Below are positions 6,724 to 39,927 of a DNA stretch of 41,703 bases, in pieces. The translations under genes were made by a program, and so were the position numbers. A model generated the notes under the pieces. That model worked only from the letters and a program-made list of their open reading frames with translations. It had not been told where the DNA came from and did no database searches. Where the stretch lies: NCBI GenBank assembly GCA_030038885.1, contig JASHQY010000010.1, forward strand, positions 1 through 41,703. Reading direction: 5' to 3'. How positions within the stretch are numbered: position 1 is the stretch's first letter; each line of letters begins with the position of its first letter. This DNA comes from Thermoplasmata archaeon (lineage in GTDB: Archaea > Thermoplasmatota > Thermoplasmata > Lutacidiplasmatales > UBA184).

Positions 6724-7350
6724 ATGCGCCGCATCCTCCTGCTCGCGCACCGCGTCCCGACGACCGGGAACTTCACGCTGAACGACCTCGCGGGGGGCGC
6801 CGGGCGGATGGACGAGGTCGCCCGCGCGGTCTCGACCGCCTTCACGACGTCGAACGACCTTCGGCGCGACACCGAGATGACGATCCTGTTCTCGTCCGAG
6901 CCCCCGCCGGCCGCCCGGAAGATCGAGCTCGTCGGGGCGCGCCTTCGCTACCTGAACCCCGACGAGCGCTCGACCGCGGCGCTGCTCAAGAACGCCCTCG
7001 TGCGCTCGATCGGCTTCCCGCGGGAGCTCGAGTCGTCCCCCGGCCTCCGGGTCGCCCCGGCCGATCCCGCGCGCGAGCTGGCCGCGTTCCTCCAGCGCCC
7101 GGGCGCGCTCTGGCTGACCGAGGACGGAACGCCCCTCGAGGACTCCCCGTTCGCCGGCGGCGACGTCGGCGTGGTCCTCTCCGACCCGTACGACCCGAGC
7201 GACGCCGAACTCGCGCTGCTCCGGGGGTCGAACGTCCCGCGACGTTCGGTCGGGCCGCGCCGCCTGCGCAGCTCCCAGGTGATCGACGTCGTGCAGAACG
7301 CGCTCGACCGGGCCGAGACCGAGCGCCGGCCGCCCCCTTCCGAACGCTAG
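6724..7350 (+). CDS. trmY: tRNA (pseudouridine54-N1)-methyltransferase TrmY (SPOUT, DUF358)
   Basis: The N-terminus NFTLNDLAGGAGRMDEVARAVSTAF..DLRRD and the block NPDERSTAALLKNAL match my recollection of the Mj1640 TrmY pattern (LKDLPGSCGRLDLLCRCV...IRRD, SPDERN). Confidence 0.75.
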   Translation: MRRILLLAHRVPTTGNFTLNDLAGGAGRMDEVARAVSTAFTTSNDLRRDTEMTILFSSEPPPAARKIELVGARLRYLNPDERSTAALLKNALVRSIGFPRELESSPGLRVAPADPARELAAFLQRPGALWLTEDGTPLEDSPFAGGDVGVVLSDPYDPSDAELALLRGSNVPRRSVGPRRLRSSQVIDVVQNALDRAETERRPPPSER

Positions 7351-8378
7351 CGGGCGACGAGCGAGGGAGGGCGCCCCGTGCCCGACCTCAGCGCGTCCCG
7401 CACGGTCCGGGGCCGCAGTCCCCCGATCACCGCCGTGAGGCGGACGACCTCCCGCGGTTCGGGGCGGATCCGCGTGCCGAAGACGAGCTTCTGCGGCTCC
7501 CCGAGGCGCTGGCGCATCGCGCGGAGCACCCGGTCGAGCGTACGGAGCGTCAGGTTCGCCCCGCCGTCGAGGTGGACGATCGCGGAGACGCCGTCGGACA
7601 GCTGGTAGTCGAGCAGCGAGTCCGAGAGCGCCTGCTGGACGAGGCGTTCGGGCTCCGACACGTGGTACTCGCCGACGACGAGCGTCGAGAGGCCCGCTTC
7701 CCGCAGGTGGTTCTTCAGGCTCGCGAGGTCGACGTTCAGCTGCGACGGGTTCTCGACCATGTCGACGAGGCTCGAGACCAGCGAGTGCAGGTAGGCGTTC
7801 CGCACGTGGAAGACGCGGTGGATCGGGAGCGACTCGAACCGGCGCAGCTTCTCGTTGGCGAGGGCCAGCAGGAGGCCGCCCATCTCCTCGAGCTCGCCGA
7901 GGGTCGCCTCGACGTTCTCGCGGCGGCCGGGGTTCGTGTCGAGCTCGACCTGGAACGGAAGGAAGACGACCGGCACCGGGAGCGTCTCGGTCGCCCGGAG
8001 CTCCCGAGCGAAGAACGGCAGGAGCGCGCTCCCGGTCCCGCCGCCGAGCCCGGCGAGCAGGAAGACGATCTCGAACGGCGCGAGCCGTCGGAGGACCTCC
8101 TCCTTGCTCTCCTCCGCGGCGCGGAGGACCGACGCGCGGTCCCCTCCGCTGCCCCGTCCCCGGAGCTCGCGCGCGCCGAGGAGGATCCGCTCCTCGACCC
8201 CCATCCGCAGCAGGTGCTTCGCGTCGGTGTTGACCGCGAACGCCCGGACCCCGGGGATCCCGAGGGTCACGAGGTCCTGGGCCGCCTCGCTACCGGCCCC
8301 GCCCAGGCCGACGACCGCGCACGGCGGGGCGAGCGCGAGGGACGCCCAGTTCTCGGGGGGCTTCGTGTCCGGGACCAT
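7347..8378 (-). CDS. ftsZ: FtsZ-family tubulin-like GTPase, a short divergent paralogue (FtsZ2-like context)
   Basis: Motifs: VVGLGGAGSEA (G1), VNTDAKHL (FtsZ NTD motif), GSGGD (T4-like), GLGGGTGSA (tubulin signature) and QLNVDLASL (T7-like N.D). It is only 343 aa, with no long C-terminal tail. Confidence 0.8.
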   Translation of the reverse strand: MVPDTKPPENWASLALAPPCAVVGLGGAGSEAAQDLVTLGIPGVRAFAVNTDAKHLLRMGVEERILLGARELRGRGSGGDRASVLRAAEESKEEVLRRLAPFEIVFLLAGLGGGTGSALLPFFARELRATETLPVPVVFLPFQVELDTNPGRRENVEATLGELEEMGGLLLALANEKLRRFESLPIHRVFHVRNAYLHSLVSSLVDMVENPSQLNVDLASLKNHLREAGLSTLVVGEYHVSEPERLVQQALSDSLLDYQLSDGVSAIVHLDGGANLTLRTLDRVLRAMRQRLGEPQKLVFGTRIRPEPREVVRLTAVIGGLRPRTVRDALRSGTGRPPSLVAR

Positions 8379-8393
8379 CGGTGCCCCGACCGC

Positions 8394-8759
8394 CTAGGGC
8401 GGAGGGGAGCCCTCGGCGACGACCGGTTCCCCCTCCCGGCGATGGGGTCGGGCCGACGGGCCGAGCTGTTCGATGCGGCCGCGGATGTACTCGCGCACCG
8501 CGGAGCGCACCGCGTCGTCCACGCTGACCGAATTGCCCTCGCGGACGAACTCCTCGAGCCGGCGGTTGTCCTGGCGCGAGAGCTCGACCACGACCTTCCG
8601 GACGTTCTGCGGCGGCAGATTGAGCTCGATGTACTGCTCGAGGCCGTCGCGGATCGTATCGGAGATCGTCGGCGTGTCCTTCGACTGCTGGATCTGCTTG
8701 AGCTTCTCGAGCAGCTCCTGCGGTATCCGGACCGTGACGCGCTCGGACGTGTCGACCAT
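8394..8759 (-). CDS. tandem ribbon-helix-helix (CopG/Arc/MetJ-like) DNA-binding protein, CdrS/CdrL-like context
   Basis: Two RHH-like repeats: ERVTVRIPQELLEKLKQI...ISDTIRDGLEQYI and RKVVVELSRQDNRRLEEFV...VDDAVRSAVREYI. I chose ATG 8759, because the ATG at 8801 lies only 17 nt from the centre of the TATA-like box and its extra codons span the palindrome. The stop lies 15 nt upstream of the ftsZ-like start. Confidence 0.7.
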   Translation of the reverse strand: MVDTSERVTVRIPQELLEKLKQIQQSKDTPTISDTIRDGLEQYIELNLPPQNVRKVVVELSRQDNRRLEEFVREGNSVSVDDAVRSAVREYIRGRIEQLGPSARPHRREGEPVVAEGSPPP

Positions 8760-8763
8760 GGAC

Positions 8764-8792
8764 GTCAGACAAGACCCCGTTCTTTGTCTGAC
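8764..8792 (-). promoter_or_regulatory. 9-bp perfect inverted repeat (GTCAGACAA N11 TTGTCTGAC), a candidate operator or 5' hairpin of the RHH-ftsZ-like operon
   Basis: Arms 8764-8772 and 8784-8792 are exact reverse complements. The repeat lies between the TATA-like TTCATATAC (8814-8822, minus strand) and ATG 8759. Confidence 0.45.
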
Positions 8793-8996
8793 GATTGACA
8801 TATCGCGCCGCTCGTATATGAATCAGCCGCTCCGCCTCCGTGGACTCTCGGGGAGTGCCGGCTCGCTCAGTGCCGGCGCTCCGGGCCGCGCCTCGGCCCG
8901 TTGCGGCGGAAGGCATAGCACCTTAACCTCCGGGAGCGCGTGTCGAGCCCCGAGAGCGGCGGATCGAGGACCGGTCGTCGGCCGCTCCGGTCGGAG

Positions 8997-9050
8997 ATGG
9001 ACTTCCGCCGCGGAACCGAACGGGCCCGCTCGGCGAGGCGGGGAACGTGA
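8997..9050 (+). other. 17-codon uORF (MDFRRGTERARSARRGT) whose TGA overlaps the GTG start of the first 7TM gene
   Basis: Read codon by codon: ATG 8997-8999, stop TGA 9048-9050, main-gene GTG at 9047-9049 (GTGA). The same arrangement occurs upstream of the paralogue. Confidence 0.3.
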
Positions 9051-9844
9051 GCGCGCTCATTCCGGCGGGGCAGGTGCCGATCTCGGTCGCGCTCGTCGTC
9101 GTCAGCGGCGCCGTGGCGGTGGTCTTCTTCGCGATCGCGGACCGGCTCGCCCGTCGGCCGGTCTCCGAGAGCTCCCGCCTCGCCTCGTACCTGTTCGCCC
9201 TCTGGTGGATCGGGATCGGGACGTCGGTCGCGATCAACGCGGTGCTGGTCGGGCTCGCGCTCACCGACACGCTCCCGTTCCCGCTCGGGATCTCGATCTA
9301 CCTGGTGAGCCTGCTGGTCGACTGCGTCTTCCTCGCGGCGCTCGTCTCCGCCCTGACGTACGTCTACACGGGGTCGTACCATCTGCTCGAGATCGGCGGG
9401 TTCTACCTCGCGTTCTACGCGGTGCTCCTCGATTGGGCGCTCTCCCAATCGCCGGACGGGCTCTCCCTCCACGCGGGGGTCCCCGCGCTCGCGTTCACGG
9501 CCGCGGCGAATCCGGCGCTCACCGCGGCGGTCACGCTCGGCCTTCTCGTGCCGGGGGTCGCGGCCGCCGTCGCGTACCTCTCGCTCCTCCGGGAGACCGC
9601 CGATCGCTCGATCCGGTTCCGCATCGCGCTGGTCGGCGGAAGCATTCTGCTCTGGTTCGCCCTCGAGATCCTCGTTCCGTCCACGACCGCTTCGTGGGTG
9701 CTCACCCGGAGCGTGCTCGAGCTCGTCCCCGGGGGGTTGAGCCTCTTGGCCCTCATTCCGCCCGCGGGGGTGCGTCGCCGGTTCGGGGTGCCCGCCCCCG
9801 GCGGCAAGGAGGAGTACTACCGTCGTCGGCCGGCCGAGCGGTGA
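9047..9844 (+). CDS. seven-transmembrane protein, paralogue 1 (possible HisKA_7TM-like sensor module)
   Basis: 265 aa with seven hydrophobic segments. It is collinear, with no gaps, with ORF 10028..10825. Shared blocks: RLAS..ALWW, DC.FL, LTYVYTG.YHL, YLSLLR, GG.ILLWF.L...VPS.TA.W. Confidence 0.8.
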   Translation: MSALIPAGQVPISVALVVVSGAVAVVFFAIADRLARRPVSESSRLASYLFALWWIGIGTSVAINAVLVGLALTDTLPFPLGISIYLVSLLVDCVFLAALVSALTYVYTGSYHLLEIGGFYLAFYAVLLDWALSQSPDGLSLHAGVPALAFTAAANPALTAAVTLGLLVPGVAAAVAYLSLLRETADRSIRFRIALVGGSILLWFALEILVPSTTASWVLTRSVLELVPGGLSLLALIPPAGVRRRFGVPAPGGKEEYYRRRPAER

Positions 9845-9974
9845 GGCCGCACGCCCACCCCCGGGGGGCGGACCTGCCGGCGTCTCGATAGTAAGATAAC
9901 CCGCGCCCGCGCCTATTCGTCACGCGGCACCCCCCCCGCTCCCCGCTCCCGGGGGACGCCGCGCCAGGTCGACG

Positions 9975-10031
9975 ATGGAGGCGTTCCGACCCTGCTGCGT
10001 CCCCCCGGTCCTCCGGACGAACGTCCCGTGA
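9975..10031 (+). other. 18-codon uORF (MEAFRPCCVPPVLRTNVP) whose TGA overlaps the GTG start of the second 7TM gene
   Basis: ATG 9975-9977, TGA 10029-10031, main-gene GTG at 10028-10030 (GTGA). Confidence 0.3.
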
Positions 10032-10825
10032 GCGCCTTGGTCCCCTCCTCCCAGCTCCCCTCCGCCGTGGCCATCGTCGTGGTGAGCCTCGGGGTCGCCG
10101 CGGTCTACGGGTTCGTCGGAGTGCGCCTCTATCGCCGGCCGATCGCGCCCGCCGCCCGGCTCGCCTCGACGCAGCTCGCCTTGTGGTGGGGAGGGCTCGG
10201 TGCGGTGACCGCGCTCGGCGGGATCCAGGTCGCGGTCGCCGTGGCCGGCGCGATGTCGTTCCCCCTGGCCCTGACGTTCTACCTGCTCAGCGTGCTGCTC
10301 GACTGCGCATTCCTCTGGGGCCTCGTCGGGTTCCTGACGTACGTGTACACCGGTCGATACCATCTGGTCGCCCTGAGCGGGTTCTACGCATGGTTCTACG
10401 TCACCGTGCTCTACTTCGTCTTCTCGAAGCAGCCCCACGCGGTCGCGATGGTCGGCGGCCAGGTCACGATCGAGTACCTCTCGGCCGTGGCTCCCGCGCT
10501 CACCGTGATCGTCGTGCTCGGCCTCCTGGGGCCCGAGATCGTCGGCGCGATCCTCTATCTGTCGCTGCTCCGGCGCACGCACGATGCCGCCCGGAGGTAC
10601 CGGATCTGGCTGGTCGGCGGTGGGATCCTGCTCTGGTTCCTCCTCGACCTCTTCGTTCCGTCCTCGACGGCCAACTGGACGATCGCCCGCGGCGTCCTGC
10701 AGGTCATCCCCGGGCTGATGAGCCTCATCGCGTTCTTCCCTCCCGAGTGGGCACGTCGCCGGTACGGCGTGACGGTGGTGTCGAGCTCCGAGGGATTGGC
10801 GGAGAAGGCCGCCGGTAGCCCATGA
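10028..10825 (+). CDS. seven-transmembrane protein, paralogue 2, translationally coupled to the histidine kinase
   Basis: 265 aa with seven hydrophobic segments. Its stop TGA 10823-10825 overlaps ATG 10822 of the kinase (ATGA). Confidence 0.8.
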   Translation: MSALVPSSQLPSAVAIVVVSLGVAAVYGFVGVRLYRRPIAPAARLASTQLALWWGGLGAVTALGGIQVAVAVAGAMSFPLALTFYLLSVLLDCAFLWGLVGFLTYVYTGRYHLVALSGFYAWFYVTVLYFVFSKQPHAVAMVGGQVTIEYLSAVAPALTVIVVLGLLGPEIVGAILYLSLLRRTHDAARRYRIWLVGGGILLWFLLDLFVPSSTANWTIARGVLQVIPGLMSLIAFFPPEWARRRYGVTVVSSSEGLAEKAAGSP

Positions 10826-12147
10826 GCGGACGTCCGTCCCCGCCGGCCCGCGCCGAGCCGGAGGTCCCGCCGGTCGCCGCGCGTCGCGGGGGGTCGCCCC
10901 AACGCATCTGGCCGGTGCTCGCGGCCGGCCTCCTCGCCCGGCGACCGGCGCCGTCGGGGCTGTTCGACGATCAGACGCGGCTGCTCCTCGATCTTCCGCT
11001 CGGAGTGCTCCTCCTGGTCGATGACTCGGGTGTCGTGCGGTACGCGAACGTCGCGCTCGAGCGCTTCCTGGGCTACACCCCCCGCGAGGTCGTCGGGCGA
11101 CCGGCCGAGGAGCTGTTCGTCAGCGCGTCGCGTCCCGGCGTCCTCCGGCTCCTCGAATCCCACGTGCCCGGGGACCCGACCGCGTCCGGAGAATTCCGCG
11201 GGCTGCGCAAGAACGGCTCGGTCCTTCCCCTCCAGGTGGTCGTGCAGAGCGCGGTCGTCCCGGGCATGCAGGGGTCCAAGGTGACCGGCCTCTACCTCCG
11301 CGACTTCGCCGAGCGCGAGAAGCTGATCGAGGCGCTCGCCGGGCGGGCGGCCGAGCTCGCGCGCTCGAACCGCGAGCTGGAGCAGTTCTCGTACATCGCC
11401 TCGCACGACCTCCAGGAGCCGTTGCGGATGGTCGGCAGCTACACGCAGCTGCTCGAGCAGCGCTACGCCGCCCAGCTCGACGACGACGCGCGGGAGTTCA
11501 TCCGGTACGCGCAGGAGGGAGCGGCCCGGATGCGCCAGCTGATCGACGCGCTGCTCGCGTACTCCCGCATCGACACGCGCGGAGAGCCGTTCCGCCCGGT
11601 CGCGATGGACCAGGTCGTGTCGGTCGCGCTCGCGAACCTGCGCGAGTCGATCGCCGAGGCGAAGGCGATCGTCACTTCCGGGCCGCTCCCCGAGGTCACG
11701 GGGGACCCCGTGCAACTGGGCCAGGTCCTGCAGAACCTCCTCGGGAACGCGATCAAGTTCCGGGGGCCGAACCCCCCGCACATCGAGATCCGGGCCGAAC
11801 GCCACGGACCGGACTGGGTCTTCTCGGTCCACGACGACGGGATCGGGATCGCGCCCGAGTACCAGGACCGGATCTTCGTGATCTTCCAGCGCCTGCACAG
11901 CCGCGAGGAGTACCCCGGCACGGGGATCGGACTCGCGGTCTGCAAGAAGGTCGTCGAGCGCCACGGAGGCAAGCTCTGGGTCGAGAGCACCGGTCGGCCC
12001 GGCGAGGGATCGACCTTCCGCTTCACGATCCCCGTCGACCGGACGAAAGCCGCTCCGGTGCCCGTGCCGAAGGTCGATGCGATCTCGTCCGAGTCGAAGG
12101 CCGAGGCGCTGACGATGATCGAAGCTCGCCTCAAGGAACTGGTCTAG
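10822..12147 (+). CDS. soluble PAS-domain sensor histidine kinase (PAS-HisKA-HATPase_c)
   Basis: PAS: LLLVDDSGVVRYANVALERFLGYTPREVVGRPAEELF. H-box: FSYIASHDLQEPLRMV. N-box: LLGNAIKF. G-boxes: DDGIGI and GTGIGLAVCKKVVERHGGKLWVES. There is no hydrophobic segment. Confidence 0.92.
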   Translation: MSGRPSPPARAEPEVPPVAARRGGSPQRIWPVLAAGLLARRPAPSGLFDDQTRLLLDLPLGVLLLVDDSGVVRYANVALERFLGYTPREVVGRPAEELFVSASRPGVLRLLESHVPGDPTASGEFRGLRKNGSVLPLQVVVQSAVVPGMQGSKVTGLYLRDFAEREKLIEALAGRAAELARSNRELEQFSYIASHDLQEPLRMVGSYTQLLEQRYAAQLDDDAREFIRYAQEGAARMRQLIDALLAYSRIDTRGEPFRPVAMDQVVSVALANLRESIAEAKAIVTSGPLPEVTGDPVQLGQVLQNLLGNAIKFRGPNPPHIEIRAERHGPDWVFSVHDDGIGIAPEYQDRIFVIFQRLHSREEYPGTGIGLAVCKKVVERHGGKLWVESTGRPGEGSTFRFTIPVDRTKAAPVPVPKVDAISSESKAEALTMIEARLKELV

Positions 12148-12280
12148 CTCCGCGTCGACCGTATCCCTCGACGCTCGTCTCCCCCCGCCGTCCGGTCCGT
12201 GACTCGAGGTGGGCGCGAGCCCCCGTCCCGCGGCGGCTCCGGGCCACAAGACTTTACGCACGGACAGCGCTGGTCTCTGC

Positions 12281-12733
12281 ATGCCGATGGCCGAAGTGCC
12301 GGTCGCCCGCCCTGCCCAGATCCTGATCGTCGAGGACAACCCGGCGGATGCCCGGCTGGTCCGCGAGGTGATGCGCGACAGCAAGATCCTGAACGAGATC
12401 CACTGGGTGCCCGACGGCGTGGAGGCGATGGCGTTCCTCCGTCGGCAGGGAAAGTATCCGGACGCGCCGCGGCCGAACCTGATGTTCCTCGACCTCAACA
12501 TGCCGAGGAAGGACGGCCGCGAGGTGCTGCGGGAGATCAAGTCCGACCCCGATCTTCGCCGGATCCCGGTGGTCGTGATGACGTCCTCCCAGGCCGAGGA
12601 GGACATCGCGCGCGCGTACGACCACCACGCGAACTGCTACGTGCGCAAGCCGATCGACTTCGAGCAGTTCCACTCGGTCGTGAAGACGCTCGAGAACTTC
12701 TGGTTCTCCACGGTCGAGATCCCGACGCGGTAG
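12281..12733 (+). CDS. single-domain response regulator (CheY/Rcp1-like receiver)
   Basis: Motifs: ILIVEDNPADARL, FLDLNMPRKDG (phospho-acceptor Asp), VVVMTSS, YVRKP. I chose ATG 12281. The TATA-like ACTTTAC lies about 25 nt upstream. Confidence 0.88.
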   Translation: MPMAEVPVARPAQILIVEDNPADARLVREVMRDSKILNEIHWVPDGVEAMAFLRRQGKYPDAPRPNLMFLDLNMPRKDGREVLREIKSDPDLRRIPVVVMTSSQAEEDIARAYDHHANCYVRKPIDFEQFHSVVKTLENFWFSTVEIPTR

Positions 12734-12758: not shown

Positions 12759-13853
12759 ATGGGGCCGCCGGCCGTACGGGTCCTGGTCGTCGACGACAAC
12801 CCCGGCGACGCGCGCCTGGTCGAGTGGAGCCTCGCGCACGAGCCCGACGGGACGTTCGAGTGCGCCCGGGCCGGACGCGTCGCTGAGGCGCTCGCGCTCC
12901 TCGATCGGCGTCCGGCCGACGCGGTCCTCCTCGACCTGGGGCTCCCGGACAGCACCGGAGCGGATGGCGTCCGACGGATCCGCTCCCGGGCGCCCGAGAC
13001 CGCGGTGGTCGTGCTGACCGGTTCCGACGACCCGCGGCGGGTCCGCGAGGCGCTCGCGGCCGGGGCCCAGGACTATCAGGTCAAGGGCGTGTTCCCGCGG
13101 GGCCATCTGTCGCGGGTGCTGCGCGCGGCGATCGCGTGCCAGCGCGTCGAGTCCGCGATCGGCCGCGGGGACCTTCCCGACCCGGAGCGCTGGGAGGCGC
13201 ACGTCGGAGGGGAGGCGCTCGCCCTGTTCGCGGACGGCCGCTCTCCGCTCGTGAGCGAAGCGTGGGTCCGCATCACCGGGGTCCCCCGCGACGGGTCGGC
13301 GGAGCACCGCGCGCGCCTCGCCGGCCTCCTCGCGGCCGGACCGGTGGGCGAGACCGAGGTCGAATCGCCCGGACAGGGCCGTCGGACCGTCGAGTACGTC
13401 GTGCGCACGTTCGGCGAGGGCGGGGCCGTCCGGCGCCTCGTCCGGCTGCGAGCGCCTCCGTCGGCTCCCGCCCCGTCGTCGGGGCGCGGGGCCCCCGACG
13501 GCGAGGCGGTCCTCGACGCGGCGGCGTGGGATCAGCTCCGCGAACTGGCCGGTGCCGATCCCTCGTTCCTGCCCGCGGTGATCGACGCGTTCCTGGAGGA
13601 GGGGTCCGCCCTGCTCGCCGAGCTCCGCGCGGCCGCGAGCGCGGGCGATCGGGGCGGGGTGGAGCGCGCCGCGCACCGGCTCAAGTCGGCGTGCGCCCAG
13701 GTCGGTGCGCTCGATCTCGCGCGCCGTCTCGGTCGCCTCGAGCGCGAGAGCGCAGGACCCGCCGAGGGAGATCTCGGTCCAGAGATCGCGGAGATCGCCG
13801 GGGGCTTCCCGGCCGTCGTCGCGGCGCTGAAGCTCCGGCGCCCGGTGCAGTGA
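12759..13853 (+). CDS. response-regulator receiver fused to a PAS-like middle region and a C-terminal Hpt phosphotransfer domain
   Basis: REC: VLVVDDNPGDARL, LLDLGLPDSTG, VVVLTGS, YQVKG. C-terminal Hpt: ERAAHRLKSACAQVGALDLA (H..KS/G signature). Confidence 0.85.
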   Translation: MGPPAVRVLVVDDNPGDARLVEWSLAHEPDGTFECARAGRVAEALALLDRRPADAVLLDLGLPDSTGADGVRRIRSRAPETAVVVLTGSDDPRRVREALAAGAQDYQVKGVFPRGHLSRVLRAAIACQRVESAIGRGDLPDPERWEAHVGGEALALFADGRSPLVSEAWVRITGVPRDGSAEHRARLAGLLAAGPVGETEVESPGQGRRTVEYVVRTFGEGGAVRRLVRLRAPPSAPAPSSGRGAPDGEAVLDAAAWDQLRELAGADPSFLPAVIDAFLEEGSALLAELRAAASAGDRGGVERAAHRLKSACAQVGALDLARRLGRLERESAGPAEGDLGPEIAEIAGGFPAVVAALKLRRPVQ

Positions 13854-13869: not shown

Positions 13870-14322
13870 CTACGCGGCGCGCTCCTTCGCGACCTGCTGG
13901 AGGACCTCGCGGATCTGCGCGAGCCGGATCGGCTTGTGGAGGACCTCGAACGCCCCGGCCTTGATCAGCGCCTGGACCCGGGGGTCGTCGCTCGGGTTGC
14001 CGGTGCACACGACGACCGTGAGGTCCGGGCTCTTCCCGAGCATGTAGCGCGCGACGTCGTGGCCGCCCTGGTTGGGGTTCCGCGGCTGGTGGAGGAGATC
14101 GATCGGCCCCGGGCCCCGCGCCCCCGCCCCCTCCGAGAGCGAGATGTCGAGGAACACGACCTGCGGGTGGAACTGGTCGAACGCCGCGACCGCCTCGCTC
14201 GCCGAACCGGATTCTCGCACGCTCTCCGCCGGCACGCCCTCCTGGGAGAGCGCCTGCTTGATCGTCAATCGGACGGTCGGGGAGTCGTCCACGATGAGGT
14301 AGCGGAGCGAAGTCATGACCAC
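13870..14322 (-). CDS. CheY-like receiver domain protein with an insertion after the phospho-acceptor Asp
   Basis: Motifs: YLIVDDSPTVR, VFLDISL, VVVCTGN, VLHKP. An extra Gly/Pro-rich segment of roughly 25-30 residues (SEGAGARGPGPIDLLHQPRNPNQGGHD) follows the acceptor Asp. Confidence 0.8.
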   Translation of the reverse strand: MVMTSLRYLIVDDSPTVRLTIKQALSQEGVPAESVRESGSASEAVAAFDQFHPQVVFLDISLSEGAGARGPGPIDLLHQPRNPNQGGHDVARYMLGKSPDLTVVVCTGNPSDDPRVQALIKAGAFEVLHKPIRLAQIREVLQQVAKERAA

Positions 14323-14442: not shown

Positions 14443-15966
14443 CTACACCACGCGCAAGAGCCCGTAGGGGGCATTGTCGTGACCTTCCGTGAGGACGAAC
14501 GTCGGCGTCCACGGGTCGGACCCGTGGAGGAAGATCCGCCCCTGGACCTGGCGGACGTGCAGCCGGAGCGCCGCGGTCGCGCGCAGGGGGTCGAGCAGGG
14601 GCGACTGGGACGAGCCGACCGCGATCGCGTGGATCGGGGAGCCGCGGACCGCCGCCTGGATCTGGCCCGGGAGGCGCTGCGCGATCTCCGGCGTGATCGC
14701 CATCCCCAGGGCGGTCGTGATCGCGACGAGGCCCTGGAGGAAGACGATGAACAGGCCGGGGGAGTCGGGGGTCGAGCCGGACCGCAGGAACTGGTCCATC
14801 CCGAGGTCGTCGGTCGGCGATACGGCGACCCCGTCGGCGGACGCGCCGAGTCGCACGATCGTCGACTCGAACTCCGACTTCCCCTCGTTCGGCCCGGCCG
14901 GGGGCAGGAGGAACCGCACCTGCTCGAGGAACCGGTGCCGCGCGATCGACCCGTGGAGGGCCTCCCACACGTCCTCGGGCAGCGTGCTCGCGTCGGGGAC
15001 GAAGATCACCCGGCCGTTCCGCTCGACCGTGTGCGCGAGCATCGGAGCGAGCAGGAGATGGGGGATCTGGTTCGGCACGTCCTTCTCGACCTCCACCAGC
15101 GTCGACTTGCCCAGCGGGAGCCGTCCGAAGCTGTCGGCGAACGCCCTCGACCCGGGCCAGAGAAGGCCGGGGAGCTGGTCGGGGGCGGGGTTGAACCGTC
15201 CCCCCTGCAACTGCCCGTACGGCCGGACCGGAACGATGCACTCGAAGTGGGCCGACTCGAGCGAGAACGGGTAGAGCGGGTTCTCGATCCGCACGCCCCG
15301 GAGCTTGAGGATCGTCAGCCACCGTTCGAGGCGGCCCTGCACGACCTCCCGGCTCGTGACGGCCACCCCGTTCACCAGGTAGTCGAGCTGGGTCTGGTCC
15401 TCGCGCTCGAGCACGAAGAGGACATGGGCGCGCACCCGGCCGAGGCGTCGGAGCAGCGAGCGTTCGATCTCCCCGCGGGTCGGGAGGTCCGCGCCGCCGT
15501 TCCCATGGCCGAGATAGGACTCGACCAGCGCCTCCCAGGAGTCGATGACGAGGAGCGACGGCTGCTGGGGATCGAGGCGGCTCCACGCCTCCTGGAGGGG
15601 ACCCGGGAGCCAGAGGAACTCCGTGAGCTCCCGGGTCGCGCTCGCGTCGTCGCTGAGCACGTTCCCCCCCGAGCGCAGCAGCGCTCGGGTCGCCTGCGAG
15701 AGGTCGGCGTTCTCGTCCGTGTTGTCGAGGACCTGGATCCCGTACCGTCCGTTCTGCCCCAACCAGGGGAACGCGAGCAGCACGTCGTCGCTCGGGACGC
15801 GATTCGTCACGAAGTGCCGCGCTCCCGCGAAGGACTGCAGCAGCGCGAGCGCGAGGCTGGTCTTGCCGGATCCGGGGGGTCCCCGCAGCAGCATCGACTG
15901 CGGTCCCGGGAGCTTGAGGAAGTCGACCAGCTCCCGTGGGATGGGTAGCGTCGCCCCCATGGCCAC
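14443..15966 (-). CDS. KaiC/RecA-superfamily ATPase, GvpD-like (N-terminal P-loop domain plus a degenerate second domain)
   Basis: Walker A LLRGPPGSGKTSLAL and Walker B SLLVIDSWEALV. The second half has only a degenerate P-loop (LPLGKSTLVEV). The TATA-like CTGTTAAC lies about 30 nt upstream of ATG 15966. Confidence 0.75.
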   Translation of the reverse strand: MAMGATLPIPRELVDFLKLPGPQSMLLRGPPGSGKTSLALALLQSFAGARHFVTNRVPSDDVLLAFPWLGQNGRYGIQVLDNTDENADLSQATRALLRSGGNVLSDDASATRELTEFLWLPGPLQEAWSRLDPQQPSLLVIDSWEALVESYLGHGNGGADLPTRGEIERSLLRRLGRVRAHVLFVLEREDQTQLDYLVNGVAVTSREVVQGRLERWLTILKLRGVRIENPLYPFSLESAHFECIVPVRPYGQLQGGRFNPAPDQLPGLLWPGSRAFADSFGRLPLGKSTLVEVEKDVPNQIPHLLLAPMLAHTVERNGRVIFVPDASTLPEDVWEALHGSIARHRFLEQVRFLLPPAGPNEGKSEFESTIVRLGASADGVAVSPTDDLGMDQFLRSGSTPDSPGLFIVFLQGLVAITTALGMAITPEIAQRLPGQIQAAVRGSPIHAIAVGSSQSPLLDPLRATAALRLHVRQVQGRIFLHGSDPWTPTFVLTEGHDNAPYGLLRVV

Positions 15967-39106: not shown

Positions 39107-39194
39107 CCCGAGGGCATCTCCGCCGGGGGACCCCGTCGGCACGAAGGGGCCGTTCCGATCGCGGGGCGGCTCCCTACCGTCGGGTCCGAAGCGA

Positions 39195-39268
39195 TGCCGC
39201 GGGCCGGGCTTGAACCGGCGGCTTCAAGATCTTCAGTCTTGCACTCTCCCAAACTGAGTTACCGCGGC
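39195..39268 (-). tRNA. tRNA-Phe (anticodon GAA), no encoded CCA
   Basis: The reverse complement folds by hand into a 74-nt cloverleaf: acceptor GCCGCGG/CCGCGGC, D stem ACTC/GAGT, anticodon stem CAAGA/TCTTG with loop CTGAAGA, T stem GCCGG/CCGGC with loop TTCAAGC, discriminator A. Confidence 0.9.
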
Positions 39269-39927
39269 AGCGCGGCGCGGGGGACGATACCGGCCATTAT
39301 ATCGCTAGAGGGAGCGGCGGTCCCGCGCTCGCGGTCGCGCGCGGTCGGGGCCGCGTGCGGGGGAGGGCCGCCCTCGCGGCGCCCCCCCGGCGTCGCGAGC
39401 TGGGCCGATCGGGGCCGGTCGGAGCGCGCCTCCCGCTCGTCGCTGGCGGGGATCTCGTCCCACAGGTAGGCGGGAAGCGTGAGACCCGCGCGCGCGATCT
39501 CCTCGCGAACGACCGGTCGCCAGTACGTCCGGAGGCTCCCGCACGGCCGCCCGTCGGCGGTCTCGCTCGACGCGGCCACGACGAGCCCCTCGGGCGCGGG
39601 CGGACCGAGCCGGGCGACCGCCCGATGGAGGCGGCCGACCCGGGGAAGCCGTCGGTGCTCGTACGTGCCGGGTCCGGTGCTGACCATGAGCCGGCCGCCC
39701 AGCGTGAGGGCCGTCCAGTACGACACCTCGTAGAGCACCGCGAAGTGGAGCCCCGTGTGGAAGATCCCCGGCCATCCGATCTCGTCCGGCTGGGGCGTGA
39801 ACGCGGTGCGGATCTCCGGCGTCCCGTCGGCGCCGACCCCGCGCTCGAACGCGAGGCGCAGCCCGCGCGGATGGCGGGGTCCGCATCCAAAGCAGGGGTT
39901 GTCCGGCGGGTTCTGAAGCGCGACCAT
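39259..39927 (-). CDS. PaaI-like hotdog-fold thioesterase with an unconserved-looking C-terminal tail
   Basis: This is the 3' end of track ORF 39259..41691 (ATG 39927). MVALQNPPDNPCFGCGPRHPRGLRLAF is a typical N-terminus of this family. The frame stays open until the TAA formed by tRNA positions 8-10. Confidence 0.65.
   Translation of the reverse strand: MVALQNPPDNPCFGCGPRHPRGLRLAFERGVGADGTPEIRTAFTPQPDEIGWPGIFHTGLHFAVLYEVSYWTALTLGGRLMVSTGPGTYEHRRLPRVGRLHRAVARLGPPAPEGLVVAASSETADGRPCGSLRTYWRPVVREEIARAGLTLPAYLWDEIPASDEREARSDRPRSAQLATPGGRREGGPPPHAAPTARDRERGTAAPSSDIMAGIVPRAALPR
39296..39303 (-). promoter_or_regulatory. TATA box (GATATAAT) about 31 nt upstream of the tRNA-Phe 5' end
   Basis: An AT-rich octamer at the spacing expected for an archaeal tRNA promoter. 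It lies inside the 3' tail of the upstream ORF. Confidence 0.45.

Follow-up and report, generated by a model that had tools for sequence, protein, structure and literature searches.

We analysed a stretch of 41,703 nt (the window: positions 1 to 41,703 of contig JASHQY010000010.1, assembly GCA_030038885.1, from a Thermoplasmata archaeon) in which two tandem genes for proteins with seven transmembrane segments (7TM), here called 7TM_A and 7TM_B, precede the gene for a soluble histidine kinase (HK). The two proteins are members of a large, previously unannotated family of stand-alone seven-helix proteins, and there is strong support for tying it functionally to two-component signalling. On balance we lean towards the view that the 7TM protein is an auxiliary membrane subunit of a two-component cassette, which would bind the kinase, and possibly also the stand-alone receiver protein RR1, via its cytoplasmic face and serve as a co-sensor, regulator or anchor; physical contact, the direction of signalling and the stimulus of the 7TM protein are elements of this view that we infer. 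The family, its fold and its distribution over two domains of life are new, whereas systems in which a histidine kinase has an auxiliary membrane partner are a known type.

Gene neighbourhoods were read in 55 loci with profiles (for the 7TM family, the kinase core, REC and KaiC) plus Pfam. Thirteen of these loci form the clade of the window (the window and L001–L012, i.e. twelve species-level genomes, with four short contigs cut at one or both ends), and 42 hold distant members from Thermoplasmatota and Chloroflexota that are 25–40% identical to the window proteins (6 reached via an exact protein and 36 from GTDB representative genomes via two sub-alignments). Three loci are cut by contig ends, which leaves 52 informative ones. 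A kinase gene adjoins the 7TM gene on the same strand in 36 of the 52 (13 of 13 in the clade, 23 of 39 among the distant loci), and in five further loci (L017, L025, L027, L047 and L049) two-component genes lie within ∼3 kb. As a control, we took 80 kinase loci of the same ASHDLQEP subtype from many phyla, and none of them carries a family member within 3.5 kb. The two counts show that the 7TM gene and the kinase gene form a conserved operon, one mark of an auxiliary regulator. The preliminary description of this DNA had named the absence of the adjacency in relatives as a ground for giving up its proposal, and the adjacency is instead conserved, with either gene coming first and in archaea as well as bacteria.

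The 7TM gene precedes the kinase gene in the window clade and in L015, L026, L032, L045, L046 and L050, and it follows the kinase gene in L014, L016, L020–L024, L028–L031, L033–L035, L040, L042 and L052. The cassettes take the form 7TM-HK-REC-REC or HK-7TM-REC-REC(output), and in Chloroflexota (Anaerolineales and Chloroflexia, including the 5.37-Mb chromosome L042) the 7TM gene stands between the kinase and two receivers. The surroundings differ, with an L18e/L13/S9 ribosomal operon in several Thermoplasmatota versus FtsZ and ribbon-helix-helix (RHH) genes in the window clade. Most pairs show a 4-nt overlap or a gap of 1–24 nt: an NTGA overlap joins the 7TM and kinase genes in 6 of the 13 clade loci (the window, L001, L002, L004, L006 and L012) and in L045, L015 has a 4-nt overlap, gaps of 1–2 nt separate the 7TM gene from its neighbour in L014, L016 and L017, and pairs in which the kinase comes first have gaps of 1–24 nt. 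In L028 (3740–4979) the kinase that precedes the 7TM gene is broken into two overlapping frames, likely a frameshift that reflects a sequencing error or a pseudogene.

When partner kinases were compared with control kinases, the nearest neighbour of 35 of 37 partner cores was another partner kinase and never one of 121 control cores, which shows that kinase and 7TM gene are co-inherited, though only within lineages or groups. A neighbour-joining tree of 40 kinase cores contained no single partner clade. Transfer of whole cassettes between phyla was considered and rejected, because the 44–56% identity of the window kinase and RR1 to their counterparts in the Chloroflexota cassettes is generic for the ASHDLQEP subtype: the 80 unrelated control kinases are 41–61% identical to the window kinase over the same core. 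The ASHDLQEP / NxELEQF[ATS]Y motif occurs in at least 600 matching stretches from very many bacterial and archaeal phyla, and kinase identity at this level is therefore no evidence of orthology.

The partner kinases are heterogeneous in their inputs. Soluble PAS kinases accompany the 7TM gene in the window clade and in L014, L024, L026, L045 and L046; kinases with a two-transmembrane (TM) hairpin and a short outside loop in L010, L011 and L050 (judged by hydropathy only); dCache-HAMP-PAS kinases in L020, L023 and L042; a DUF4118 kinase in L022; and L029, L031, L033 and L035 have kinases whose 5–7 TM segments give no match to the family profile. In L017 the directly upstream gene encodes a protein with three PAS domains and V4R that is without a kinase core. 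What stays the same throughout is the HisKA/HATPase core, accompanied by the 7TM protein and a REC-only protein. Since the 7TM protein is constant beside kinase inputs as different as dCache, DUF4118 and TM segments, it is not merely a detached sensor. In the Chloroflexota cassettes, a REC-only gene equivalent to RR1 (44–56% identical) follows the 7TM gene. The second receiver varies: in archaea it carries HPt, and among ten bacterial cassettes examined (Chloroflexota, L020–L042) it is REC-PAS/GAF-HD-GYP in seven, REC-PAS-GGDEF in one and ends in HisKA-HATPase in two. Because these receivers end in HD-GYP or GGDEF, the Chloroflexota cassettes appear, as judged from their domains, to govern the turnover of cyclic di-GMP (c-di-GMP).

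Some taxonomic labels among the distant loci deserve caution. The assembly GCA_021325135.1 (L017, L018 and L043), deposited as ‘Proteobacteria bacterium Centralia_MAG_189’, carries archaeal markers (diphthamide synthase and KaiC clusters), and its label is probably wrong. At least three 7TM paralogues are present in this assembly, of which one belongs to a two-component cluster and two do not. The label ‘Halobacteriales archaeon’ of L032, L038 and L039 may likewise be doubtful.

The two proteins of the window are clearly paralogous. 7TM_A (9047–9844, + strand) and 7TM_B (10028–10825, + strand) both start with GTG and have 265 aa, and the gap-free alignment of two equally long same-strand reading frames noted in the preliminary description was borne out by the list of open reading frames (ORFs) and by BLASTP (121 of 255 aligned residues identical, 47%, no gaps, E = 2e-80; 121 of 265 over the whole length). 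A recount returned exactly the 31 identities it had given for the first 60 residues, its shared blocks LTYVYTG.YHL, YLSLLR and GG.ILLWF.L...VPS.TA.W begin at residues 103, 177 and 197 in both paralogues, and a hydropathy scan agrees with seven hydrophobic segments in each copy. Between the genes lies a spacer of 183 nt (9845–10027, + strand) without translational coupling of the two. The GC content at third codon positions (GC3) is of the coding type in both genes (0.89–0.91; 0.91 in 7TM_A), and the public gene calls agree on both 7TM proteins (265 aa each) and on the kinase (441 aa), none of which bears a name there. Minus-strand ORFs over 9047–12147 were rejected as high-GC shadows, because there the coding-like GC pattern of the codon positions is restricted to the + strand.

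Neither 7TM_A nor 7TM_B matched Pfam or NCBIfam at E ≤ 1, and the family profile found no match among the PDB sequences. Many archaeal kinases carry a fused N-terminal 7TM input of the HisKA_7TM type, and a link to this type was the first thing that the preliminary description wanted checked by profile hidden Markov model (HMM). The check failed to return it: PF16927, 7TMR-DISM, rhodopsin and other Pfam 7TM families were matched by neither copy and by none of 100 diverse family members at E ≤ 1, nor did these 100 match any other Pfam family consistently. A word-indexed search yielded 73 clusters, nearly all of 243–280 aa with a few shorter fragments, and those with names all bear the title ‘hypothetical protein’ and come from Thermoplasmata. 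When 1.84 billion representatives were searched exhaustively with a profile, the number rose to 725 clusters at E ≤ 1e-3 (615 at E ≤ 1e-10), counted at 50% identity; two additional profile searches had the same outcome. The typical length is ∼250–280 aa (133–372 aa in the best 150 of the 725 clusters). Among ∼330 clusters inspected, all of 133–372 aa, no fusion was seen and none has a Pfam domain on record; since the homologues carry no Pfam domain and are too short for a kinase, they are not fused to one. Two outcomes that would have counted against the proposal, namely homologues that always occur fused and a match to a transporter or enzyme family, thus did not appear. An assembly or frameshift artefact was rejected, as the two-gene layout recurs in 12 independent assemblies, no fused form was found and the public calls are identical. 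Pfam, NCBIfam, the source annotations and the literature searched gave no description of the family, and the preliminary description did not recognise the arrangement either.

An AlphaFold2 model of 7TM_B, based on an alignment of 37 sequences, has seven long helices (pLDDT 89, pTM 0.84). In the model a beta-hairpin (residues 136–150) occupies the TM4–TM5 loop on the outer side, a short helix-8-like C-terminal helix (240–246) follows TM7, and the N-terminus extends ∼6 residues outside the membrane. Arg and Lys residues in the loops number 13 on one side versus 1 on the opposite side (clustered at 33–44, 105–112 and 177–192 and in the tail at 243–245), which gives a predicted N-out/C-in topology. 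Foldseek found no match to 7TM_B in the PDB at E ≤ 1e-3, and its best 50 weak matches are all G-protein-coupled receptors (GPCRs) or microbial rhodopsins; the list includes neither a transporter nor an enzyme. We read this likeness as that of a generic 7TM bundle of such connectivity rather than as homology. Helix 7 contains no Lys in either copy; 7TM_B has just two Lys residues, K134 and K260, and 7TM_A a single one, K254.

Invariant or near-invariant in the family are W54, R192, R37, F50, L99, L103, G109, Y120, P169, Y177, L180, V196, W203, A235, P238 and P239. The family alignment has no conserved Asp, Glu, His, Ser, Cys or Lys column, and for want of such catalytic-type residues an enzyme was rejected as a reading. 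We scored conservation (Jensen–Shannon) on a 100-sequence alignment by membrane zone, and the mean was 0.47 in the cytoplasmic thirds and loops, 0.45 in mid-membrane and 0.32 outside. The 35 positions with the strongest conservation include 23 on the cytoplasmic side and 3 outside (permutation p < 1e-4). Motifs on the cytoplasmic side comprise R37 where TM1 ends, YxYTG where TM3 ends, YLSLLRR...RYRI at the TM5–TM6 turn and PPxWxRRR after TM7. This conserved face fits a candidate docking surface for a cytoplasmic partner.

The kinase of the window (10822–12147, + strand, 441 aa) consists of a Pro/Arg-rich N-terminus, a hydrophobic stub and PAS, HisKA and HATPase_c domains. Pfam matches are PAS_9 at 61–141, HisKA at 186–252 (E = 2.6e-11) and HATPase_c at 294–406 (E = 1.9e-29). 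It is of the classical HisKA type, having a HisKA domain with the H-box His and HATPase_c, and its H-box ASHDLQEP is invariant in the alignment. Pfam and hydropathy both agree with the earlier assignment of PAS, HisKA and HATPase domains to a protein without a membrane segment: no membrane-spanning segment was detected, and the sole hydrophobic window by hydropathy is the start of the PAS domain. The sequence also confirms the overlap of the 7TM_B stop with the kinase start (ATGA, 10822–10825, + strand; ATG at 10822–10824, TGA at 10823–10825). This start is supported by the fact that no start codon other than ATG 10822 precedes the conserved stub. Residues 1–30 (10822–10911) are Pro/Arg-rich, of low complexity and variable length, and are not conserved among orthologues. 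The orthologues themselves are 65–84% identical and come immediately after the 7TM gene in 12 of 12 related genomes.

The stub (residues 31–43, WPVLAAGLLARRP; 10912–10950, + strand) is conserved across the clade. With its 13 residues before the PAS domain it is too short for a membrane span, and the window kinase has the stub only and not the two TM helices with a loop below ∼25 residues that mark intramembrane-sensing kinases. In the L010 and L011 kinases, which have two TM segments, its counterpart in the alignment is the end of the second segment, and the stub may be a remnant or a docking element. Since the window kinase is without a TM input, 7TM_B is the sole membrane element of the cassette in this lineage and the likeliest entry for membrane signals.

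How could such a cassette work? In the mechanism that we propose, the 7TM protein would bind the histidine kinase, or the kinase together with the stand-alone receiver RR1, through the end of TM1 and the first intracellular loop (R37), the end of TM3 and the second intracellular loop (YxYTG), the ends of TM5 and TM6 (YLSLLRR...RYRI) and the PPxWxRRR helix. It would tether the kinase to the membrane and adjust the kinase/phosphatase balance upon a stimulus sensed within or at the membrane, and phosphate would then pass onward to RR1 and the REC-HPt protein. Indirect support for such binding comes from the conserved cytoplasmic face and from the start/stop overlap of the two genes. Where a two-component operon also encodes a membrane protein (LiaF, YycH/I, BceAB), this protein typically acts as an auxiliary regulator of the kinase. 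SpdC is reported to be an 8-TM Abi protein that controls WalK (PMC5854430). Our arrangement matches the pattern of these membrane regulators, which adds to the case for an auxiliary regulator.

Several observations weigh against it. In 11 of the 52 informative loci (L018, L019, L037–L039, L041, L043, L048, L051, L053 and L055) there is no nearby two-component gene, and therefore some family members at least work without an adjacent kinase. The loci are also phylogenetically non-independent: in L001–L012 the order is TrmY, FtsZ (−), RHH (−), one or two 7TM genes, kinase, REC, REC-HPt, REC (−) and ATPase (−), and because this whole ∼10-kb neighbourhood is syntenic the 13 clade loci amount to about one observation. 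Kinases with dCache or multi-TM sensors of their own need no extra sensor, which suits a regulator, a scaffold or an effector just as well as a sensor. The conservation of the cytoplasmic face, of Arg in particular, is partly expected from the positive-inside rule. Finally, the resemblance to GPCRs and rhodopsins by Foldseek is weak (best E = 9e-3, TM-score 0.30–0.58, identity 10–18%).

A more far-reaching version, which we put forward tentatively and which is less probable than the general one, is that the 7TM protein is a stand-alone GPCR-like receptor for a membrane or extracellular cue. It would signal via its cytoplasmic loops and the helix-8-like tail to a separate kinase, forming a prokaryotic receptor-plus-kinase pair common to Thermoplasmatota and Chloroflexota, and in the lineage of the window the kinase would have lost its own membrane input entirely in favour of this receptor.

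The signal could also run the other way, with the 7TM protein as the output of the system: phosphorylated RR1, or the kinase, would bind its cytoplasmic face and so switch a channel, transporter or lipid-related activity. The other constant member of the cassette, RR1, is REC-only with no output domain and comes directly after the 7TM gene in Chloroflexota, archaeal receivers act mostly by protein–protein contacts (PMC5847659), many partner kinases have their own sensors, and the conserved positions lie on the cytoplasmic face, all of which would suit an output. We nevertheless consider it unlikely, as the second receiver in bacteria already has an output (HD-GYP, GGDEF or kinase), the helices are without the conserved charged or polar residues expected of a channel or transporter, no transporter is among the best 50 fold matches, and L026, L032 and L052 have 7TM/kinase pairs without a nearby REC gene.

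Quite improbable, in our judgement, is a membrane protein with some other role, in housekeeping, lipids or the envelope, that is co-transcribed with the two-component genes through genomic inertia or as a regulated target. That about one fifth of the loci are without a two-component neighbour, that the window clade is syntenic over the entire region and that tandem 7TM pairs without kinases occur in L038 and L041 would agree with it. It does not explain why the pairing is kept across two domains of life in both orders and with different flanks, why the 7TM gene lies inside the cassette between kinase and receivers, why the genes overlap or are 1–24 nt apart, as is typical of co-translated subunits, or why 0 of the 80 control loci carry the family.

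The literal split of a fused HisKA_7TM-type kinase, with the 7TM gene as the detached input domain, is largely refuted and we give it very little credence: although the window kinase has no membrane segments and shares a start/stop overlap with the 7TM gene, and archaeal kinases with fused 7TM inputs exist (PMC5847659), 0 of 100 members match PF16927 or another Pfam 7TM family, no fused homologue occurs in the ∼330 clusters, the 7TM gene in most relatives follows the C-terminus of the kinase, and partner kinases often have TM or dCache inputs of their own. From the split 7TM sensor kinase of the preliminary description, the separate polypeptide tied functionally to the kinase (13 of 13 clade and 23 of 39 distant loci) therefore stands, whereas the HisKA_7TM origin of the input does not.

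The same description spoke of a duplicated input. Here the paralogy is real (47% identity), but two copies are present in only 3 of the 13 clade loci (the window, L005 and L006), and the duplication is thus secondary and dispensable. 7TM_B, the kinase-proximal copy, has a counterpart in all related genomes, and its orthologue is the sole copy in 10 of the 13 clade loci. The spacer between tandem copies measures 183 nt in the window, 240 nt in L005 and 104 nt in L006. In a neighbour-joining tree the upstream, ‘A-type’ paralogue 7TM_A clusters with the upstream copies of L005 and L006, and the upstream copies of the window and L006 have an EEYYR C-terminal tail in common, which indicates one older duplication followed by losses; a long-branch artefact is also conceivable. 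Of the 35 most conserved family positions, 7TM_A retains 28 and 7TM_B 31, and with these 28 positions and a normal coding GC3 7TM_A looks functional. It may contribute a second specificity or pair with 7TM_B. Tandem pairs of the family also occur with no kinase nearby, in L038 (672–2582), where an opposite-strand aldolase gene and then a rhomboid/zf-AN1 gene follow, and in L041 (4171–5843), after a TFIIB gene. Duplication is therefore recurrent and independent of the link to the kinase.

Downstream of the kinase, the window continues with RR1 (12209–12733, + strand; Response_reg, E = 1.4e-21), the REC-HPt phosphorelay protein RR2 (12759–13853, + strand; Response_reg and Hpt) and a convergently transcribed receiver, RR3 (13870–14322, − strand; Response_reg). 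RR3 keeps this position in every clade locus whose contig extends to it: it is complete in 9 clade loci, cut at the contig end in L003 and beyond it in L002. Next comes a KaiC/GvpD-like double P-loop ATPase of 507 aa (14443–15966, − strand), with weak Pfam matches to AAA_16, GvpD_P-loop and KaiC, which is kept at the same position in 10 clade loci. KaiC-type ATPase genes also stand beside 7TM/HK genes in other Thermoplasmatota (L015, L016, L017, L025 and L050), immediately upstream of the 7TM gene in L015 and L025, and such an ATPase may be an extra component of the archaeal version of the system.

Directly upstream of the 7TM genes, 6724–8801 holds genes for a TrmY-like methyltransferase (+), an FtsZ-family protein (−, 343 aa) and an RHH protein (−, 135 aa). 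Across the related genomes that have them, FtsZ is 87–93% and RHH 82–93% identical; L010 and L011 are without all three, and since the distant 7TM/kinase cassettes are without them too, these genes probably reflect lineage synteny and lie outside the system. In keeping with an origin from Thermoplasmata, the relatives are without exception Thermoplasmata MAGs, and the neighbourhood includes the archaeal housekeeping genes aEF-1alpha, TrmY and FtsZ. ARAGORN and Rfam detected a single RNA gene in the window, a tRNA-Phe (GAA) at 39193–39269 (−). The window has ∼72% GC, and two AT-rich islands in the intergenic DNA, at ∼9888–9900 upstream of 7TM_B and at 8810–8825 upstream of 7TM_A, could be putative archaeal TATA boxes.

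The family matters because it is a testable candidate for how cytoplasmic archaeal kinases receive membrane or external signals. According to an archaeal census, 62% of archaeal histidine kinases are cytoplasmic, and the only 7TM inputs that it lists are fused ones of the HisKA_7TM type (PMC5847659). In the passages searched, a 2026 survey of GPCR-like 7TM folds (PMC13581589) treats prokaryotic 7TM proteins, histidine kinases included, only as a class and contains no stand-alone partner family. If the preferred reading is true, a GPCR/rhodopsin-like bundle would be a new structural class among the auxiliary proteins that control two-component kinases; the HD-GYP and GGDEF receivers of the bacterial cassettes suggest that the family may also feed c-di-GMP signalling. 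Naming and characterising a family of 725 clusters that is absent from Pfam and NCBIfam would in addition better annotate many soil and sediment genomes.

How does this system compare with known ones? As in LiaF–LiaS, YycH/YycI–WalK, BceAB–BceS and SpdC–WalK, a separate integral membrane protein is encoded in the same operon as the kinase, and the kinases of L010, L011 and L050 have the two-TM, short-loop input of intramembrane-sensing kinases that depend on helpers. Unlike LiaF, YycH/I, BceAB and SpdC, to which it has no sequence or profile similarity, the 7TM protein is modelled as a seven-helix GPCR/rhodopsin-like bundle. It pairs also with fully soluble PAS kinases, such as the window kinase, which has no membrane sensor of its own, and it occurs in Thermoplasmatota and Chloroflexota, whereas those systems belong to Firmicutes. 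With HisKA_7TM (PF16927) and 7TMR-DISM (PF07695) it shares the association of a seven-helix module with HisKA/HATPase_c kinases, in archaea. In contrast to both, it is never fused, gives 0 of 100 HMM matches at E ≤ 1 and usually comes after the kinase, and unlike 7TMR-DISM (PF07695/PF07696) it has no extracellular DISMED-type domain, the outer N-terminus being only ∼6 residues long.

Sensory rhodopsin II–HtrII–CheA and Anabaena sensory rhodopsin with its soluble transducer are similar in that the 7TM protein would, as a stand-alone receptor, signal to a separately encoded kinase pathway, and the fold resembles theirs weakly. The 7TM family differs from sensory rhodopsins by having no retinal Lys in helix 7, no rhodopsin HMM match and no transducer, and its partner is a HisKA kinase, not CheA. 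With eukaryotic GPCRs and the GPCR-like 7TM proteins that the 2026 survey covers in all domains of life (PMC13581589), the model has in common the predicted N-out/C-in bundle, a beta-hairpin between TM4 and TM5 and a short helix after TM7, with a Foldseek TM-score of up to 0.58. Unlike GPCRs, the family has no G-protein or arrestin machinery, and with matches this weak (E ≥ 9e-3, 10–18% identity) the likeness may be generic.

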